From the NCBI GenBank assembly GCA_963666835.2, contig CAXXGO010000007.1, positions 32,001 to 96,000 of the forward strand: DNA of 64,000 nt, written 5' to 3'. The DNA comes from Phycisphaerae bacterium. GTDB lineage: Bacteria; Planctomycetota; Phycisphaerae; UBA1845. The position numbers and the translations under genes were made by a program. Each line of letters begins with the position of its first letter. Position 1 is the stretch's first letter. Of this stretch, positions 3,432-39,661 are shown piece after piece. The notes under the pieces were generated by a model. That model was given only the letters and a program-made list of their open reading frames with translations. It was not told the DNA's origin and did no database searches.

Positions 3432-3530
3432 GACGCAACCCGTTGGGGTTGATCTTTGATGCAACCGTGATCCAAGGGTGGCCGCTTCGCGGCAATTCCG
3501 GGCTGCAGGACGTAACGCCGTTGGCGTATG
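3432..3530. repeat. REP-like composite (CCCAGGGTAGCCG..GGCAACCCTGGG family plus ACGCCnnnGGCGT hairpin)
   Basis: Related copies at about 8135-8240, 31305-31400 and 40405-40460. Confidence 0.8.
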
Positions 3531-31103: not shown

Positions 31104-31463
31104 CCGTCTTCGCGCGATGTGCGCCGTTGTGGCAGGTCTCGTGCCTCGACCGTGCCCTACGAGCTCTTCGCGCTATGCGCGTCTTTTGAACTCACGCCAA
31201 CGGCGTTTAACAGCAAAGCCCAGGGTAAACGAAGCGGCGCAGCCGCGCAGCGCCACCCTGGGGCACGGCGCCCCTTTCCACACCAACCCCGAAGCGGGTT
31301 GAACAACGGCGCAACCCCTGTCGGGGTTGATCCTCGATGTCACCGTAATCCCAGGGTAGCCGCTGCGCAGCAACCCTGGGCTATAGGACGTAACGCCTAC
31401 CTTCCTGACATATGTCCACCCGGGTACCTTGGTAACGGACTTCGGGACTTGGGAGGACTACGC

Positions 31464-32315
31464 ATGGGGCTGCGGAACAAGAAGAAGGAGAGGCTTGAGC
31501 GTCTTGACTCGAAGACACTGGATGCCAAGTTTTTGCACGAAATCAAGCACGGACTCCATTGTTCGCCATTCGAGGCCGAGGCGGTTCTCGATGTGGTCAA
31601 GGAAGTTTACTTCCCGTACCTCGATGAACACGCCGGCAAGGCCCCACCTGGCAAGATTGGCTTGGTCGTCGTCGACGCCGACGAGCCTGCCGGGAAACCC
31701 GTCTGCGAATGCCAGAAGCAGAACGTGTGCCTGACAATCCACCGAGGTGCAGAGGATGATCGACTTCTGGAGGAGGAGGGGCCGGTCGGCTTTCGACAAG
31801 CCCGCATCCCACCGCTTTGCCAAGAAGCCCTGAGTCAAGGTGGGCTGCTCACGCGCGAAGATCTGGCCTACCGGATGTTCTTTGTTACGCCACGAACCAT
31901 TACGCGCGATTTGAACGCTCTCCGGAGTGCGTATCCCGGGGTGCTTATTCCTCTGCGAGGAATCGTACACGATCTTGGTCCCGTGTTGACTCATCGCAGC
32001 CAAATCGTGCGTTTGGCTCTGGAGGGAAAGACGACCTCACAGATCTGCACCATGCTTCGCCATTCACCGGCGGCTGTAGCGAACTACGTCTCGACATTCA
32101 CCCGTTGTGCGCAGTTGGCAAAGAAAGGTATGCAGGTCGGGCAAATCGCCTTCCTTCTGCGGAGAGGCAAGCGGTTGGTACAACAGTACCTTGATCTCCT
32201 CGACGAATGCGCGGTCGACAAGAACATGGGCTATCACCTGGAAGAACTGATGCGCCTGGGTTGTTGTGGCGGGGGGAAAAAGGGACACGGTGAAGAGGGA
32301 AGATCCGATGGGTAA
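31464..32315 (+). CDS. DUF1670-like protein A
   Basis: GGAGG RBS; EALSQGGLLTREDLA...IPLRGIVHDLGPVLTHR...HSPAAVANY (family recognised from recalled motif). Confidence 0.8.
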   Translation: MGLRNKKKERLERLDSKTLDAKFLHEIKHGLHCSPFEAEAVLDVVKEVYFPYLDEHAGKAPPGKIGLVVVDADEPAGKPVCECQKQNVCLTIHRGAEDDRLLEEEGPVGFRQARIPPLCQEALSQGGLLTREDLAYRMFFVTPRTITRDLNALRSAYPGVLIPLRGIVHDLGPVLTHRSQIVRLALEGKTTSQICTMLRHSPAAVANYVSTFTRCAQLAKKGMQVGQIAFLLRRGKRLVQQYLDLLDECAVDKNMGYHLEELMRLGCCGGGKKGHGEEGRSDG

Positions 32316-33081
32316 GCCGCGAGACACCAACAGCAGAAGATACAGTCCCCTGCAGGCGAAAACGCTGAGAAACGTGTTGGCTCACCGCATCGAAACGGAG
32401 TTTCCACGCATAGGCGGCCCACGGATTCGCAACCTGTGCGCAGAGATGATCCTTGAGGTCATCGGTGCCCACGTTCTCCCGAAGGAGCATATCCAACATG
32501 GTCAGATACTCTGGATGGCGATCAGCAGCGCAGATCCCCCGAGTCAGCGTCGACGGATTGAGGATACCGATCTGCTTCCGGTGGTCTTGGACGTGAGTAC
32601 CTTCGAGGATATCGAGATGCGTTTGCAGAAGAAGGGACGTGGAGAGTTGCTCTTACAAAAGAGCTTGAGGTTATGCCGGCAGGCGTACGAACAAGGGGGC
32701 GTTCTGTCCAACTCTGATCTCTCGGAGTTGTTAGCAGTCAATGCGTCGGACGTCTCGCGATTGTTGGCGGCGTACGAACGCGAGACCGGTCAGATCGTCC
32801 CACGTCGCGCTACTGTCCACGATGTCGGCACAGGGCTTACGCACAAACGGATCATCTGTTTCAAACATTACGCAGAAGGCAAAGCGGCTAACGAAGTGGC
32901 TCGGGAAACGTACCACAGCCTTGAGGCTGTGGATCGTTACCTGGGCCAGTACGATCGCGTCCGCCACTGCCATCTTCAGGGGCTGACGGCAAAGGAGACA
33001 GCCCATGCTTTAGGTTGCAGCATCTTCCTGGTTCAGGAGTACCTGGAGATCGATCATGAGTTGGAGGGCCAGCATGCTTGA
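32308..33081 (+). CDS. DUF1670-like protein B (paralogue of A)
   Basis: QAYEQGGVLSNSDLS...VPRRATVHDVGTGLTHK...HSLEAVDRY; overlaps gene A by 8 nt. Confidence 0.8.
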   Translation: MGKPRDTNSRRYSPLQAKTLRNVLAHRIETEFPRIGGPRIRNLCAEMILEVIGAHVLPKEHIQHGQILWMAISSADPPSQRRRIEDTDLLPVVLDVSTFEDIEMRLQKKGRGELLLQKSLRLCRQAYEQGGVLSNSDLSELLAVNASDVSRLLAAYERETGQIVPRRATVHDVGTGLTHKRIICFKHYAEGKAANEVARETYHSLEAVDRYLGQYDRVRHCHLQGLTAKETAHALGCSIFLVQEYLEIDHELEGQHA

Positions 33082-33119
33082 CTCGATGGCACAGCACGTC
33101 AGACTTGTGTGTGCTGGTC

Positions 33120-33270
33120 GAGAGGACAGGGCTCTGCTGAGGAGCACCCCGAGCGCTCGTACCAGTGCCGGGACAGGCGCGGGAGTCTGCATGCACGGCG
33201 GGCTCTCGCTCTCCCTGGCCTGTTCTGGCTCCCAAGCGACAAACCTTGGGGGTCTGGGGGCAAAGCCCCC
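33120..33270 (+). ncRNA. Candidate structured non-coding motif shared with the IS1111 element
   Basis: Homologous to 39302-39482 (minus strand); preceded by TTGACT-16 nt-CAGACT (33078-33105); ends in GGGGGC-AAA-GCCCCC hairpin. Confidence 0.55.
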
Positions 33271-33628
33271 GGTGATCGCCACACGGTCGCGGTGGACATA
33301 TGTCACTATCTACGGCGTATTTGCGACCGCGGGTGCCCAGCGTTATCGGAGCAAAGGCCTGACCGGAGTGCATTCCTACACCGTGAACGGCTCTACCGCG
33401 ACGCAGGCAATCTGGCAAATCATGGGGGAAGACGGCGCCGCCCGAGGATTCGGTTGCGGCAGATTCACCGGGCCGACCGAGCTGGCCGCCCGGCAGCCAT
33501 ACCGGCGAAGCCCAGCCGCCAAAGAGGATTCGGCTTCGATACAAAGCCGACCGAGCCGATATCGCTGATCGGCGGATAACTCGATATTGCGACAGACCGA
33601 CCCCATTTGGATATAGTAAGAACAGCTC

Positions 33629-36600
33629 ATGAGCCAAGCAGATCTAATGCAAACCGTCACCGAACGGGTGCTGGTGTTCGACGGGGCTATGGGCACCGGT
33701 CTTCATGCCCGGGAGCTGTCGATATCGGACTATGGAGGTCACGAAGGCTGCCCGGAGGTTCTGGTTCGAACTCGCCCGGACGTCATTCTGGATATCCACA
33801 GGTCGTTTCTGGCGGTCGGCTGTGACGCGGTGCTGACAAACACCTTCGGGGCCAACCAGGTCGTTTTGATCGACTACGACCTTGCGGACCAGACCTTCGA
33901 ACTCAACAAGGCGGCCGCCGAGCTGGCTTGCCGGGCGTGCCGCGACTTCGAGAGGCCGGGTCGCCCGCGGTTCGCCGTCGGTTCGATCGGGCCGGGTACG
34001 CGCCTTCCCACGTTGGGCCAGATTACCTGGGACGAGCTGGTTCAAAGTTATCGAGAACAGACCCTGGGGCTGCTCGCAGGGGGCGTCGATGCGGTCGTTA
34101 TCGAAACCTGCCAGGACATCCTCCAGGCGAAATCGGCAATCGTGGCGGCCGGTGACGCCATGACCGAACAGAACCGCGAGGTGCCGATCTTCTGCACCGT
34201 TACGATCCAGCCGACCGGGACAATGCTGGTCGGAACGGATCTCGCCGCGGCCGTGACCACAATACAGGCATTCGACCGGGTGGCCGCAATCGGGGTGAAC
34301 TGCGCGACCGGCCCGCAGGAGATGGCCGAGCACGTTCATTACCTTAGCAGTTGTTGTGCCCGCCCGCTGATCGTGCAGCCGAACGCGGGACTGCCTCAGC
34401 TTCTCGATGGTCAGCCTCACTACGATCTGACCCCCGAGGAGTTTGCGAAGTGGATGGTCGAGTTCGTCGACCGTGACGGAGTGAGTATCGTCGGCGGGTG
34501 CTGCGGGACGACCCCGGAGCATCTTGCGGCCGTGGTCGACGCTCTCGATGGTCACCGGCCGAAAACGCGCCGGGACAAGTCAGAGCCGGCCCTGAGCAGC
34601 GTGTATCAGTCCGTTACCTTCCGGCAGGAAAACACGGTGTTGATGATCGGCGAGAGGACCAACGCCAACGGCTCGAAGAGGTTCCGTGAACTCCTGGCTG
34701 AGGACGATTTCGACGGGATGTTGCAGGTTGCTCGTCAGCAGATCGACGACGGCAGCCATCTGCTGGACGTCTGCACCGCCCAGGTAGGTCGCGACGAAGA
34801 GCGGGACATGATCGAGCTGATCCGGCGCCTCGCCGTCGACATTACGGCGCCGTTGGTTATCGACAGCACCGAGCCCGCGGTAATCGAAGCGGCCTTGAAG
34901 CTGCTCGGCGGTAAGGCGATCATCAACTCGATCAACTTGGAGGACGGCGAGGAGAAGGCGGCGGCGGTGTGCAGGCTGGCACGTCGTTACGGGGCGGCCT
35001 TGATCGCCCTGACTATCGATGAAGCCGGGATGGCCAAGACGTGCTCGCGGAAAGTGGAGATTGCCCGGCGTCTATATGAGCTGGCCGTCAACCGTCACGG
35101 ACTGCACCCGGAGGACCTTATCTTCGACCCGCTGACCTTTACCGTCGGCACGGGCAATCCTCAGGACTCCGGGCTGGCCTTGGAGACGCTGGACGCCGTT
35201 GCGGAGATCAAGAGCGTTTTGCCGAACGTCCACACTCTGTTAGGCGTCAGCAATGTCAGCTTCGGCCTCAAGCCACCGGTCCGGCGGGTGCTCAATAGCG
35301 TGTTCTTGCATCACGCGCAGCAGCGGGGGTTGGACGCGGCGATCCTGCACCCCACGGGGATCCTTCCGCTTCATTCGATCAACGAGCATCACCGCCGGTT
35401 GGCCGAAGATCTCATCTTCAACCGGCGGAGCGGCGAATACGACCCGCTCGCGGAGTTGCTCGAAGCTCTGGCAGATGCCCCGCAGGAAACGGCGCGGGTC
35501 ATCGAGCTGCCGCCTAAGGTCGAGGACCGCCTGAGGAAACGGATTATAAGCGGCGAACGCCGGGATCTGGCGGAAGACCTGGATGAAGCGTTGGGCACGC
35601 ACACCGCGGAGGACATTATCAACGACATCCTGTTCGACGGGATGAACACGGTGGGCGACCTGTTCGGGGCGGGGCAAACGCAGCTTCCCTTCGTACTCCG
35701 CTCGGCGGAGACCATGAAGGCGGCCGTGCAGTACCTTGAACCGCACATGAGCCGCGACGCCGCGGCCGACAAAGGGACTCTGGTCCTAGCCACGGTCCGG
35801 GGCGACGTTCACGACATCGGCAAGAACCTCGTAGACATCATCCTGACCAACAACGGCTACACCGTCCACGATCTGGGCATCAAGCAGCCTATCAGTAATA
35901 TCATTAAGGCGTGCAACGAGTACGAGCCCGATGCCATTGGCATGTCAGGATTACTCGTGAAATCTACGGTAGTCATGCGCGAGAACCTGCAGACCCTCAA
36001 CGAGCACGGAATCACTACCCCGGTGATTCTGGGCGGCGCCGCCTTGACCCGCAGATTCGTCGAGCAGGATCTTAGAGCCGAATACGGCGGTCCGGTGTAT
36101 TTCGCCAAAGACGCCTTTGCCGGCCTGCGTTTGATGGATGAAATCACTACCGACCGGGCCCGAGCGTCTGCCGCGGTGGAACGCCTGCTCACTCCGATTG
36201 CCGGGGCGGTAATCGGCAACGCCCCGCCCGCGGTCTCTGAGATCTACGAAGCGGGAGGGGAACATTCGGAACACCCGGAGTACATCCCGCCTCGGTCGGA
36301 CATATCGCGGGACGAGCCCGTGCCCGAGCCTCCCTTCTGGGGAGCGCGAGTTCTGGAAAACGTGCCGATCGGAGAGGTCGCCGCTCACCTCGACGAGAAG
36401 GCGCTCTTTCAGGTTCATTGGCAATACCGCAAGAACCGCAGAAGCCTACAGGAGTATGGCCGGTTCCTCGATACCGAAGTCCGCCCGATCCTTTGTGATC
36501 TGCTCGATCGATGCGTTCGAGAGGACATTCTGAAGCTGCAGGCGGTCTACGGCTTCTGGCCCGCCCAGGCCGAGGGTGACAGCCTGGTGGTCTATGACCC

Positions 36601-37117
36601 GCATGACCGCAACGCGCGTCTTACCGAGTTCGAGTTCCCCCGCATGGGCAAGCCGCCGTACTGGTGCATCAGCGACTTCTTCAGACCGGCTGACGGCGGG
36701 GTCTTTGATGTCGTCGCGTTCATGCTGGTGACTGCAGGCCGGCGGGTCGGCGAGGTTGCGCACGATCTGCGGGCGGCCAATCGGTATCAGGATTACCTGC
36801 ACCTCCACGGTCTGGGCGTAGAGATGACCGAAGCGTTGGCCGAGTATCTGCATCAGCGGATTCGCACCGAATGGGGAATCGGGGGGAACGCCCCCGAAGA
36901 CCAAAGGAAGATCGGCGTGCAATCTCGGCAGGGTTCGCGCTATAGCTTCGGTTATCCGGCTTGTCCGCGCTTGGAGGACCAAGTGAAACTCTGGCCTCTC
37001 CTCGAACCGGAACGACTCGGCGTGAGCCTCTCGGAGACGTGCCAGTTAGAGCCGGAGCAAACCGCCACCGCCCTAATCGCTCACCATCGTCAAGCGAAGT
37101 ACTTCAGCGTGAGCTAG
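33629..37117 (+). CDS. metH: Cobalamin-dependent methionine synthase
   Basis: FDGAMGT, GVNCATGP, GGCCGTTP, IGERTNANGS, GDVHDIGKN, RYSFGYPACP. Confidence 0.97.
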   Translation: MSQADLMQTVTERVLVFDGAMGTGLHARELSISDYGGHEGCPEVLVRTRPDVILDIHRSFLAVGCDAVLTNTFGANQVVLIDYDLADQTFELNKAAAELACRACRDFERPGRPRFAVGSIGPGTRLPTLGQITWDELVQSYREQTLGLLAGGVDAVVIETCQDILQAKSAIVAAGDAMTEQNREVPIFCTVTIQPTGTMLVGTDLAAAVTTIQAFDRVAAIGVNCATGPQEMAEHVHYLSSCCARPLIVQPNAGLPQLLDGQPHYDLTPEEFAKWMVEFVDRDGVSIVGGCCGTTPEHLAAVVDALDGHRPKTRRDKSEPALSSVYQSVTFRQENTVLMIGERTNANGSKRFRELLAEDDFDGMLQVARQQIDDGSHLLDVCTAQVGRDEERDMIELIRRLAVDITAPLVIDSTEPAVIEAALKLLGGKAIINSINLEDGEEKAAAVCRLARRYGAALIALTIDEAGMAKTCSRKVEIARRLYELAVNRHGLHPEDLIFDPLTFTVGTGNPQDSGLALETLDAVAEIKSVLPNVHTLLGVSNVSFGLKPPVRRVLNSVFLHHAQQRGLDAAILHPTGILPLHSINEHHRRLAEDLIFNRRSGEYDPLAELLEALADAPQETARVIELPPKVEDRLRKRIISGERRDLAEDLDEALGTHTAEDIINDILFDGMNTVGDLFGAGQTQLPFVLRSAETMKAAVQYLEPHMSRDAAADKGTLVLATVRGDVHDIGKNLVDIILTNNGYTVHDLGIKQPISNIIKACNEYEPDAIGMSGLLVKSTVVMRENLQTLNEHGITTPVILGGAALTRRFVEQDLRAEYGGPVYFAKDAFAGLRLMDEITTDRARASAAVERLLTPIAGAVIGNAPPAVSEIYEAGGEHSEHPEYIPPRSDISRDEPVPEPPFWGARVLENVPIGEVAAHLDEKALFQVHWQYRKNRRSLQEYGRFLDTEVRPILCDLLDRCVREDILKLQAVYGFWPAQAEGDSLVVYDPHDRNARLTEFEFPRMGKPPYWCISDFFRPADGGVFDVVAFMLVTAGRRVGEVAHDLRAANRYQDYLHLHGLGVEMTEALAEYLHQRIRTEWGIGGNAPEDQRKIGVQSRQGSRYSFGYPACPRLEDQVKLWPLLEPERLGVSLSETCQLEPEQTATALIAHHRQAKYFSVS

Positions 37118-37128
37118 AACGAGCGGGT

Positions 37129-37536
37129 GTCGGAGTAGGAATCCCGGTTGCCCGGGACCCCCTCCACAGATCCCAGCGTGCGGGACTGCCGCACTGGGCT
37201 CCTACCTTGGGCCATAACGGCCAGGTGTCGGTCGGGGTAAGGATGTAGGATCTTGGGAGCGGGTATCCACTGCTTGGCCAGACGGTTCATGCGGGCCCAG
37301 GTAATCCGAGTCTTCTCGCTACGACGCCGGAGCGTCCAGCGCCAGAGACGAACAACCTCATCCCGAAACGCCGTTAAGGCCGGGTAGTTCCGCGGCACCG
37401 CATAATACCGATAGTACCCGAGAACCACCGCTCGCAAATACGCACCCACCTCTCGAACGGGGGCATGCAGATGTCGCCGAAGCTCTTGCTTAATCGCTTT
37501 GAGCTTCGCACGCCGTCGTTTCGCGACAGTCTGCCG
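37129..37536 (-). mobile_element. 5'-truncated copy (3' 408 nt) of the class E-type group II intron
   Basis: Near-identical to 12585-12992, including the maturase C-terminus, DV and DVI. Confidence 0.92.
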
Positions 37537-37589
37537 CTATCCCTACGCCATCGTCTCGTCTTGTCGAGAATCCCGTCGCGCACAAGCGG

Positions 37590-37787
37590 TCTGGGCTTCG
37601 CCAGTCCATGGATGGCTCGCCGCAAACGCCCGGCCGAATCGCGTTTGTCTTCCTGCGGACCGATGATTCACCTCCGGTTGCTCCCCACCCCGCCTCACGG
37701 CGACGCAGTTACCTTCAGTTACAGGCCGGAGAACGCATGCCTGAAGGGGACTTGCACCCCTCCGATCAAGTACACTCTTAGGCGCAC
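37590..37787 (-). mobile_element. 5' fragment (domain I) of a IIC-type group II intron
   Basis: Starts GTGCG at 37787; AGGGGTGCAAGTCCCCT; AACTGCGTCGCCGTGAGGCGGGGTGGGGAGCAACC; lies 3 nt after a hairpin once the IS is removed. Confidence 0.75.
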
Positions 37788-37865
37788 TAATCGCATGAAA
37801 GGCTGTCTCCCGCCGGACGGTAGGATGTCCGTTCGGCGGTCGGGAGGACCAATAGGGAGACGACC

Positions 37866-39053
37866 ATGAAGAAGGACAGAATGGTAGCGCAGATTGGCTT
37901 GGATAGCCACAGGAAGTTCAGCTCGGTGACGGCACGGGGAGAAGACAACAGGATTGTATGGCGGCAGCGTCTCGAGCACTGGAATCGGGACGAGGTACGG
38001 GAACGCCTGCAGTCTTGGCCGGTTGGGACTCCCGTGATTCTCGAGGGGACGTTCGGGTGGGGCTGGTTGGCGGACGAGTTGACCGCGGCGGGGTTGGATC
38101 CGCACTTGGCATCGAGTCGGAAAGTGGCTGGCTGGCGGGAGGTTCGGGGAATCGCGAAGTCCAACCGGACGGATGCAGATCTGTTGTCGGAGCTGTGGTC
38201 GGAGAAGTCGCGGTGGTGGGAGGTCTGGCTGGCGCCGCGGGCGGTTCGGGACGAGCGAGAACGGATGCGGTACCGAATGAGCTTGGTGCAGATGCAGACG
38301 CGGCTCAAGAATCAGATTCACGCCATCCTGCATCGGCACGGGATCTTGCATGAGTTTTCCGACCTTTTCGGCCGGGCCGGCCGGCGTATGTTGGATGGTC
38401 TGGTAACGCCGAAGGATGAGACGCTTCGAGCCAGCGCGAAGGCTGCGTTGAAGGGGTATCTGCAATTGCTCGATCATGTGCGTCGCCAGATTGCACGGGT
38501 CACGCGAGAAATTCGCCGGGAGCTCAAGAAGGATCCAAACGGCGAACGCTTGCGTACGATCCCGGGGATTGACGTGGTTTTGGCGTATACGATTCTGGCG
38601 GAGATCGGACGAATCAGCCGATTCCCAAACCGGAAACACTTGGCTTCGTACGCCTTGTTGGCTCCGCGCGCGGACGACAGCGGTGATGAGGACGATGAGA
38701 CACCCAAGGGGCGGCATGTGGGACGGATCGGTCGCCGTACGCTGAAATGGGCGTTTATCGAGGCCGCCCGCGGCGCAGTACGGAAGGATAAGCGTTTTCG
38801 GGAGATCTTTGACCGACGCACAGACGGGGGGAAGAAGGACCGCAATCGCGGCTACATCACCGTGGCTCACGATTTGACGCGTGTGGTACACGTGATGTGG
38901 AAAAAGGAGATCGACTACATGGACGATCCGCCGGATCGTCCACGGACAGCATCAAAGAAACGCCGTCCGGCAAGAACGGCAAGGAAGCGACTTCGAAAGA
39001 AATCTCGTCCGGGAACGGGCCAGCCCGAGGACCCTATGGTCGTTGCTGTCTGA
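37866..39053 (+). CDS. IS110-family DEDD recombinase/transposase
   Basis: IGLDSH, ILEGT, KSNRTDA, TIPGID, EIGRISRF, DDSG serine motif, LKWAFIEAA. Confidence 0.95.
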   Translation: MKKDRMVAQIGLDSHRKFSSVTARGEDNRIVWRQRLEHWNRDEVRERLQSWPVGTPVILEGTFGWGWLADELTAAGLDPHLASSRKVAGWREVRGIAKSNRTDADLLSELWSEKSRWWEVWLAPRAVRDERERMRYRMSLVQMQTRLKNQIHAILHRHGILHEFSDLFGRAGRRMLDGLVTPKDETLRASAKAALKGYLQLLDHVRRQIARVTREIRRELKKDPNGERLRTIPGIDVVLAYTILAEIGRISRFPNRKHLASYALLAPRADDSGDEDDETPKGRHVGRIGRRTLKWAFIEAARGAVRKDKRFREIFDRRTDGGKKDRNRGYITVAHDLTRVVHVMWKKEIDYMDDPPDRPRTASKKRRPARTARKRLRKKSRPGTGQPEDPMVVAV

Positions 39054-39210
39054 GAAGACGGCTCCAGGCCTCGTAGTAAATGGGCCGCCCGTACCGGACG
39101 AGATCATGCGACCCCGCGCCCGGTGTCCCATGGTGGCATCGGATCGACATCATGTTGTTATGTCGGCAGGCAAGCGGTAGCGCGAATGGATAGATGGACC
39201 GATCGAGAGA
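39002..39210 (+). ncRNA. Predicted bridge/seek RNA of the IS1111 element
   Basis: 11-bp stem 39002-39012/39094-39104 encloses GGACCCTA and CGTA (target matches); CATGCGA and ATGGATA match the donor junction. Confidence 0.65.
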
Positions 39211-39661
39211 TCTAGTCCGAACCGGTACACGGACGAGACAGATACGAGAAAGACACTGGGAAACGCCCGCGGGGTCGGGCTTTCCCGCCTACGGCGGAAC
39301 TGGGGGCGCTGCCCCCAGACCCCCGGAGTTTATCGCTTTGGACCAAGAGCAGACTGCAGAACATATGATAAGAGGCGTCCACCAGCTACGATGGACGCCC
39401 CTGCCCTTGACCAGGTCGTCAAGAGTCTGCCCTCGGGTCTTGCGGGCGCTCGGGTCGCACTCCTGCGTTGCCCTACCCTCTCGCAAGACAACGCCAGGAT
39501 AATCGGATTGACCCCAATCGAACAGCCCCGTTGCCTGCCGAATCAGCAAGCAGCCGGGCCGAATGGGAATGTTTTATACTTGACCGGGACATGCCTTTCA
39601 TGGATAGGGTCCGCTGTGCGGACCATCTGTCTTTGACCGTTTCGCTGCTCGAGAATGCACA

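Follow-up and report, generated by a model that had tools for sequence, protein, structure and literature searches.

The 64,000-nucleotide (nt) stretch analysed here, called the window throughout, comes from a Phycisphaerae bacterium of the Planctomycetota (GenBank assembly GCA_963666835.2, contig CAXXGO010000007.1, positions 32,001 to 96,000 of the forward strand), and its positions 31399-33311 form a real mobile element, 1913 base pairs (bp) long counting one CT, which is recently active and carries two open reading frames of the DUF1670 family, ORF-A and ORF-B. The best explanation is an insertion-sequence family that has not been described, and we read the element, with a probability of roughly 55%, as an autonomous site-specific insertion sequence whose recombinase is the DUF1670 pair or a fusion of its two proteins. 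It probably moves by machinery not yet described, because its only two genes encode DNA-binding proteins without a recognisable DNA-cutting domain. The parts of the window copy, one of six in the genome, are the following (aa, amino acids; REP, repetitive extragenic palindrome; HTH, helix-turn-helix).

31385-31396, plus strand: left half of the target, the 5' arm of the small REP hairpin (..GACGTAACGC); ..ACGC precedes the CT in 6/6 copies
31397-31398, plus strand: core dinucleotide CT of the left junction, the point of crossover, repeated at the right junction
31399-31405, plus strand: outer left end ACCTTCC; in relatives (CT)ACCTTC(C/T)
31406-31420, plus strand: left sub-terminal inverted repeat (IR) TGACATATGTCCACC with the palindromic core GACATATGTC
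31464-32315, plus strand: ORF-A, 283 aa, DUF1670 plus HTH_23
32271-32284, plus strand: homopolymer run G6A5G3, about 25 nt upstream of the ORF-B start
32308-33081, plus strand: ORF-B, 257 aa, DUF1670, highly conserved
33113-33272, plus strand: structured tail RNA made up of a multi-helix hairpin (SL1), a long P4 stem whose inner hairpin varies, and a GC hairpin
33291-33305, plus strand: right sub-terminal IR GGTGGACATATGTCA
33306-33309, plus strand: outer right end CTAT; in relatives NNAT or GAT
33310-33311, plus strand: CT core at the right junction
33312-33322, plus strand: right half of the target (ACGGCGTATTT), with A at 33312 where the five remaining copies have T

The genome carrying the window (6.02 Mb in 7 contigs) holds six copies of the element (element positions 1-1915) that differ by at most 5 nt, being two alleles with three copies each, and both alleles are present in public contigs. 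The allelic differences fall at window positions 32284, 32285, 32287 and 32679, three of them just past the slippery run (GGGACAC versus GGAGCTC) and one in ORF-B. All six copies lie, at six different sites, in the same orientation in the same 13-nt REP hairpin, ACGCC-TNC-GGCGT, giving the arrangement ..ACGC/element/..CGGCGTA..; the left junction reads ACGC-CTACCTTCC in every one of them, and the right junction reads CACTATCT-TC-GGCGTA in five and CACTATCT-AC-GGCGTA in the window copy only. Furthermore, the genome contains empty sites, 44 of the form ACGCC-TTC-GGCGT and 2 of the form ACGCC-TAC-GGCGT, which match the prediction in that they are exactly what excision of the element plus one CT leaves. 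A first-pass annotation of the window had proposed a mobile element with defined boundaries inserted in a REP loop. The boundaries and the insertion site are borne out by the common hairpin and the empty sites, and the mobility by the near-identity of the six copies and by depth: the element assembles as its own contig at a depth of 16.7 and 15.6 in two public runs, versus 2.8 for the right flank, or about 6 times as much.

These observations also bear on a quite different account, namely that a REP-associated regulatory gene pair was duplicated with its flanks and is not mobile at all. Both proteins are indeed rich in HTH modules, and some sources label their relatives 'CsgD family transcriptional regulator' (others use DUF1670 or hypothetical protein), but we find this account scarcely credible, as it is contradicted by the flanks of the six copies, which differ beyond the 13-nt hairpin, by boundaries that are sharp and common to all copies, and by the empty sites.

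As for the exact ends, the two 15-bp IRs reported initially are confirmed as perfect reverse complements of each other, lying 5 nt and 4 nt inside the two CTAC motifs (31397-31400, followed by CTTCC, and 33310-33313). Likewise, deletion of 31401-33313 does yield AGGACGTAACGCC-TAC-GGCGTAT, and the uninterrupted AGGACGTAACGCC-GTT-GGCGTAT is present at 3507-3529. The duplicated CTAC core that had been proposed is correct for the window copy and fails as a general rule: because the right junction reads CTTC, not CTAC, in 5/6 copies, the two junctions have only CT in common, and CTAC is peculiar to the target of the window copy. The length of 1913 bp counting one CT follows from this shorter core, and the last C of the 5' arm of the target doubles as the C of the CT. 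A scan of the element for promoters and terminators gave nothing above shuffle expectation. Elsewhere in the genome lies a solo right end (L008:1500-1550, C6:1881239-1881279), about 50 bp long, 100% identical and joined to CT-TCGGCGTA, the remainder of the element being gone.

The same organisation recurs far beyond this genome. Relatives of ORF-B number 1453 at E ≤0.001 in a collection clustered at 90%, and 970 representatives at 50% clustering; they sit mostly on contigs of about 2 kb, which implies that metagenome assembly breaks at a repeat and is a further argument against an immobile regulatory pair. With an alignment as query (a single-protein query gave none in genome contigs), we retrieved 55 related loci from species-representative genomes, spanning Planctomycetota, Acidobacteriota, Nitrospirota, Verrucomicrobiota, Chloroflexota, Lentisphaerota and others. 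When the flanks of these collected gene pairs were checked, as the annotation had advised, the same sub-terminal IRs, core and hairpin targets were found. Where both ends could be placed, the left end reads flank-CT-ACCTTC(C/T)(T/A) and then the IR, whose palindromic core is GACATATGTC, GACAATTGTC or GCCAAATGGC in the family, and the right end reads IR and then NN(G/T)AT-CT-flank. CT stands at both junctions in 17/19 insertions, the six copies of the present genome included, the two others being L061 (TT/TT) and L031 (CT/CC). Beyond their ends, the elements mapped in this way have nothing but the gene pair in common, and this pair is under strong constraint. Targets are the loops of short GC hairpins whose stems vary by lineage, and their common feature across lineages is ..CC/CT/NCGG.. 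at the hairpin tip. The targets read in individual loci are these.

L070, L037 and L038: GCCCC-TTC-GGGGC
L035, L036, L040 and L041: GCCCC-T(T/C/A)C-GGGGC
L043: GACCCC-TCC-GGGGTC
L032: CGTCCC-TAC-GGGACG
L046: GCCCCC-TCT-GGGGGC

A tblastn search against plasmids returned no match, and a phylum-wide survey found the Pfam family of DUF1670, PF07900, in 1/400 other genomes, as a weak match that is uninformative on co-occurrence.

ORF-A and ORF-B overlap by 8 nt and are paralogues (26% identity, E 3e-16), in agreement with the initial description. Both match PF07900 (ORF-A, E 1.8e-37 and 129.3 bits; ORF-B, E 1.6e-49 and 168.7 bits; gathering score, 25 bits), weak extra Pfam matches in the pair are to HTH_23 and HTH_29, and NCBIfam gave no family name for either protein. 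ORF-B is 58-83% identical to 27 aligned relatives from several phyla, with 60 invariant columns. In an alignment of 79 sequences its G174, H179 and Y211 are invariant, and R121, Q129, D137, D172, K180, H203 and Y245 are present in at least 90%; the equivalents D170, G172, H177, R178, H200 and Y208 are kept in ORF-A, and the set D, H, K/R, H, Y is conserved in both paralogues. Long members of the family (504-952 aa) consist of two or three DUF1670 units and carry no other catalytic Pfam domain. Three members are oddly fused to a DnaG zinc ribbon or to UvrD, apparently through read-through of host genes.

ORF-B was modelled with AlphaFold from the 79 sequences (pLDDT 87.9, pTM 0.78); the model begins with three helices, followed by one beta hairpin, and is purely helical thereafter. 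Against the PDB, Foldseek returned nothing for this model at E ≤0.001, and the VIA-align matches were all generic ones to HTH, sigma-region-4 and winged-helix folds (Z ≤6.4, residues 97-257). The N-terminal 110 residues modelled alone (pLDDT 75.8) had no match above Z 3.8; the sole match of a profile search of PDB sequences was a designed CAP-repeat protein, and the best score in the Protein Atlas was 0.81, with no lead. Prediction of the complex of ORF-A with ORF-B (score 0.09, mark 0.32) counts neither for nor against binding. The ORF-B model, then, contains no recognisable DDE, DEDD, HUH, serine-recombinase or tyrosine-recombinase fold, and the earlier statement that no known transposase domain is evident is upheld by Pfam, NCBIfam, the model and the fold searches, which show HTH modules only.

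The individual enzyme classes compare as follows. PF01548 and PF02371 of the IS110/IS1111 recombinases are absent among the Pfam hits of both ORFs at E up to 1, and the rve domain of IS3-type DDE transposases has no Pfam match in either. For the HUH Y1/Y2 nucleases of IS200/IS605 and IS91 there is no Pfam match, no such fold among the fold matches and no His-hydrophobic-His among the conserved columns. Resolvases too gave no Pfam match, and the fold-search lists contain HTH matches only, an absence from lists that is not proof; the Tn3 resolvase was matched solely through its HTH part (Z 5.3). Serine-recombinase elements (IS607, small resolvases, invertases) nevertheless share with the DUF1670 element a 2-nt crossover core, the absence of target duplication, dyad-symmetric sites and HTH DNA-binding domains, but the latter has no Pfam resolvase domain, and the ORF-B model shows a two-stranded beta hairpin, not the alpha/beta domain of a resolvase.

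The junction between the two genes offers a further clue. In 12/12 sequences compared, a homopolymer run lies about 25-35 nt before the start of ORF-B, and it takes these forms.

Window copy: G6A5
L031: G7A5
L032, L033, L037 and L070: A8 or A9
L043: A6G4
L061: G4A7
Acidobacteriota genome: G8A4 or G7A4

ORF-B of the window copy is in the +1 frame relative to ORF-A, so that losing one nucleotide in the run fuses the two. Both states coexist in the Acidobacteriota genome, where two G8 copies are split (281 aa plus ORF-B) and two G7 copies are fused into one 539-aa gene, split and fused alleles differing by one G. The IS1 and IS3 families dose their transposase by programmed slippage, which yields OrfA and OrfAB, and a conserved slippery run is typical of regulated transposase expression; by this analogy, the run argues for the A-B fusion being a functional product. 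The DUF1670 element resembles these families in its two consecutive overlapping genes, the conserved slippery run at their junction, and the occurrence of fused and split alleles. It differs from them in that it has no DDE (rve) domain, its two ORFs are mutual paralogues, fusion in the window copy needs the loss of one nucleotide (+1) and not a -1 shift, and insertion is site-specific and without target duplication.

From all of this we infer a possible course of transposition. ORF-A and ORF-B would be made separately, and the A-B fusion would also be made by slippage on the G6A5 run. Their HTH domains would bind the palindromic core GACATATGTC of both sub-terminal IRs, and the ends would then be brought together, probably in an excised circle or a synapse, in which right end, CT and left end (RE-CT-LE) would constitute a dyad site (IR, 4 nt, CT, 7 nt, IR) with the predicted junction ..GTCACTAT-CT-ACCTTCCTGAC... 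This site would recombine with the CT at the tip of a small GC-rich hairpin or dyad (..CC/CT/NCGG..), with no target duplication and with the orientation set by the asymmetric loop. The strands would be cut by the DUF1670 proteins themselves, for which D172, H179, K/R180, H203 and Y211 (ORF-B numbering) are candidate catalytic residues.

The first-pass annotation had already taken the two proteins for the mobilisation machinery. That view stands as far as the mobility of the element goes; its catalytic part does not yet stand, as no active site was identified. Several results weigh against the two proteins being the recombinase. No circle junction, excision product or empty-site joint at the window locus was seen in the assembled contigs of the public runs, and neither a catalytic fold nor a catalytic motif came out of Pfam, the model or the fold searches. 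In the model, the conserved His, Lys and Tyr occupy helix N-caps and the recognition helix of a sigma-4-like HTH, where their role may be catalytic or may be no more than reading the conserved IR. In addition, IS110-family recombinase genes occur in 10/11 DUF1670-bearing genomes versus 6/14 controls, and one such recombinase lies only 4.5 kb away in the window.

An alternative is that the DUF1670 proteins do no more than recognise the ends and the target and bring them together, and that a recruited host enzyme does the cutting, be it a Xer-type tyrosine recombinase, a topoisomerase or a REP-associated HUH enzyme. There is precedent in the IMEX elements, which borrow XerCD. Proteins that look like pure multi-HTH DNA binders would suit such a division of labour, the target and the RE-CT-LE junction are both dyad-symmetric in the manner of recombinase core sites, and a spread over many phyla fits a universal host function. 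However, likeness to a host recombinase site is not among our findings, the target stems vary across lineages while the protein stays conserved, and many polar residues outside the recognition helices are conserved beyond the usual needs of DNA binding. We therefore regard a host enzyme as an unlikely, if serious, candidate for the cutting step.

Following the two genes is a non-coding tail of 230 nt, and its segment 33113-33272 is a structured RNA with strong covariation. It stands directly after ORF-B, on the same strand, in 24/55 related loci. An alignment of 26 sequences has 28 consensus pairs, with compensatory changes in 20; 94.1% of its cells are paired versus 80.8% in shuffles, the observed values being reached by 0/500 shuffles, and controls in which the structure was slid along reach at most 45%. 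G-U pairs are frequent (18/26 at one position, for example), and the RNA was assigned on this basis to the strand of the genes. Rfam (4227 covariance models, E up to 1) had no match over the window tail, nor in 8 metagenome loci holding the RNA, and a search of the literature on structured-RNA motif surveys, within which survey papers and supplements were not covered, gave no paper tied to it.

We considered whether the tail might act as a guide RNA. Exact matches of at least 6 nt to target or donor gave only ACGGCG; tail and leader of the window copy have 5 matches of at least 5 nt versus 9.6 in shuffles; and over 9 lineages, matched RNA-target pairs score 7.56 and mismatched ones 7.08. Judged by contiguous complementarity, which is what these comparisons cover (split guides of <5 nt being below their reach), the tail RNA does not appear to be a guide. 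An Acidobacteriota relative, present in four copies with the same ends, core and target type, has its right repeat just 60 nt or so after ORF-B, and the covariance model of the tail RNA found no match anywhere in that genome. Because this active relative is without it, the RNA is dispensable, and it is an accessory passenger outside the core machinery.

In the genome carrying the window the tail RNA occurs 12 times, that is, in the 6 DUF1670 elements, in 5 copies of an IS110-family element, and once solo. The solo copy (L007:1497-1700, C6:796204-796400) is 79% identical to that of the window, has no DUF1670 gene nearby and is followed by GGTGGGACAATTGTCAAGAAGGTAG, the inverted left end of another DUF1670 lineage (L043/L045 type); it is probably a remnant or a miniature derivative. 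The idea that solo RNA modules as such are miniature inverted-repeat transposable elements (MITEs) of the DUF1670 element finds no support, since DUF-type IRs stood beside the module in 0 of 28 metagenome loci inspected.

A wider distribution of the RNA emerged when metagenome contigs were scanned with a 33-nt pattern from its first stem-loop, which gave at least 119 stretches, 80 of which were taken (L110-L189). The covariance model matched in 80/80, mostly at full length (82 matches), and in the resulting alignment, which was fitted to the model, 92.3% of cells are paired versus 67.7% in shuffles, with 0/500 shuffles equal and slid controls at or below 45%. Pfam annotation of the two longest ORFs of 75 metagenome loci placed the RNA beside IS3/IS481-type rve, IS30, IS110 (12 loci), ISL3, IS256, IS21 IstA/IstB, IS630, IS66 and DDE_Tnp_1 genes, AAA_22/AAA_25 ATPases of Tn7- or Mu-like kind, and a group II intron reverse transcriptase, as well as two plasmid Rep genes, DUF1670 in one locus only, and ordinary genes in about a dozen. 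A mobile-element or plasmid gene is present in 56 loci, and in 44 of them the RNA follows that gene closely on its downstream side, mostly within about 30 nt of the stop codon, being antisense in 27 of the 44 and sense in 17; many RNA copies have a -10-like box (TAYAMT) 4-8 nt ahead of the first helix. The tail RNA is thus a promiscuous accessory module of transposons, found beside about ten other mobile-element families, and this spread into their 3' ends may point to a general function that helps transposons.

The nearest published parallel that we found is MITEPpu9/ssr9. According to PMC12288879, ssr9 is a small-RNA gene downstream of a transposase gene and also occurs solo, like the tail RNA; MITEPpu9/ssr9 is moved in trans by the ISPpu9 transposase, and its range is limited to one insertion sequence in a few strains of Pseudomonas putida. 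Unlike ssr9, the tail RNA stands beside its many families in numerous metagenomes.

The resident IS110-family element deserves closer inspection, because the DUF1670 element might be non-autonomous and moved in trans by an IS110/IS1111-family DEDD recombinase, its two genes being cargo or regulators. Five copies of the IS110-family element are present in the genome, one of them at window positions 37789-39613. Its transposase (37866-39053, plus strand, 395 aa) matches PF01548 with 30 bits and PF02371 with 65 bits, the element's sub-terminal repeats CATGAAAGGC..TGTC..CCG are set 6 and 11 nt in from its ends, and a homologue of the tail RNA occupies about 39295-39490 on the opposite strand. The excess of IS110-family genes in DUF1670-bearing genomes and the shared RNA would suit movement in trans, and so would the layout of the DUF1670 element. 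PMC11187229 describes the IS1111 family as having sub-terminal IRs, a dinucleotide core, no target duplication and REP targets.

The DUF1670 element is in fact similar in many respects to the IS1111 group of IS110 (ISEc11, ISPa11, ISKpn4): sub-terminal IRs, precise insertion at a common dinucleotide without duplication, strong specificity for both site and orientation, target sites within REPs or other repeats that form hairpins, and a long non-coding region 3' of the genes that holds a structured RNA. It differs in having no DEDD/Transposase_20 recombinase, in a tail RNA that is dispensable and has no target-matching segments, and in IRs whose palindromic core is suited to HTH dimers. The resident IS110 element, moreover, has ends (TAATCGCATGAAAGG.. 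and ..GGATAGGGTCCG) that do not resemble those of the DUF1670 element, and flanks that do not resemble the REP hairpin target. The complementarity of tail and leader to target or donor is, as given above, no better than chance. Since the RNA is promiscuous, its presence in both elements is no evidence of common machinery, and the two IS110 transposases that accompany it, one in the window and one in genome G002, show no detectable similarity (BLASTP E 1.1), although both have PF01548 and PF02371. One DUF1670-bearing genome is without an IS110 match, though it is a metagenome-assembled genome, and cargo would not be expected to keep the identity seen for ORF-B across phyla along with conserved ends. 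Taken together, these points make movement by an IS110-family recombinase improbable. A stretch past the RNA of the IS110 element, CCGGTTCGGAC-TAGATCT, was considered as a decayed DUF-type right end; it is probably a coincidence, as related IS110 non-coding regions (L135) are collinear there.

Returning to the DUF1670 proteins as the enzyme, we may venture, tentatively and at somewhat less than even odds, a more specific proposal: ORF-A and ORF-B, as fusion or heteromer, would form a new HTH-only class of site-specific transposase/recombinase with an Asp/His/His/Tyr catalytic centre, recognition of the hairpin tip and exchange at CT, and the tail RNA, undescribed and 160-170 nt long, would be an independent, promiscuous companion with a general transposon-helping function. 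To our knowledge, the enzymes that move bacterial DNA elements are of DDE, DEDD, HUH, serine, tyrosine and Cas1 type only, and here a widespread, clearly active insertion sequence has proteins that match none of those classes. Should the pair prove to be the enzyme, it would be a new kind of integrase, compact and very site-specific; otherwise the element would exemplify a novel mode of borrowing a recombinase, from the host or from a foreign source. The system is directly testable, being 1.9 kb long, with ends, core and target defined to the nucleotide and with natural variants that are split or fused, and with or without the tail RNA. That RNA offers a second line of inquiry, towards an accessory function of general use to transposons. 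A full-text literature search for DUF1670 and PF07900, with ISfinder outside the search, returned no paper. What the present work adds is a core shortened to CT, a count of six copies set against a stock of empty sites, a dispensable tail RNA backed by covariation, and the other carriers of that RNA.

Two minor observations concern neighbouring or comparable elements. The second IS110-family element mentioned above, that of genome G002, is present there in six copies (L102:1150-3031, with a 437-aa transposase), and the tail RNA follows its transposase gene directly, in convergent orientation; by eye, over the aligned stretch, this RNA copy is closest to the RNA in the DUF1670 element of G002 itself. 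In the window, between a methionine synthase gene (33629-37117) and the IS110-family element, lies a group II intron remnant (37114-37704, minus strand), with sub-threshold Rfam matches to domain V/VI and D1-D4 (36.3 and 25.2 bits, below gathering) and a 111-aa ORF resembling the C-terminal part of a maturase.

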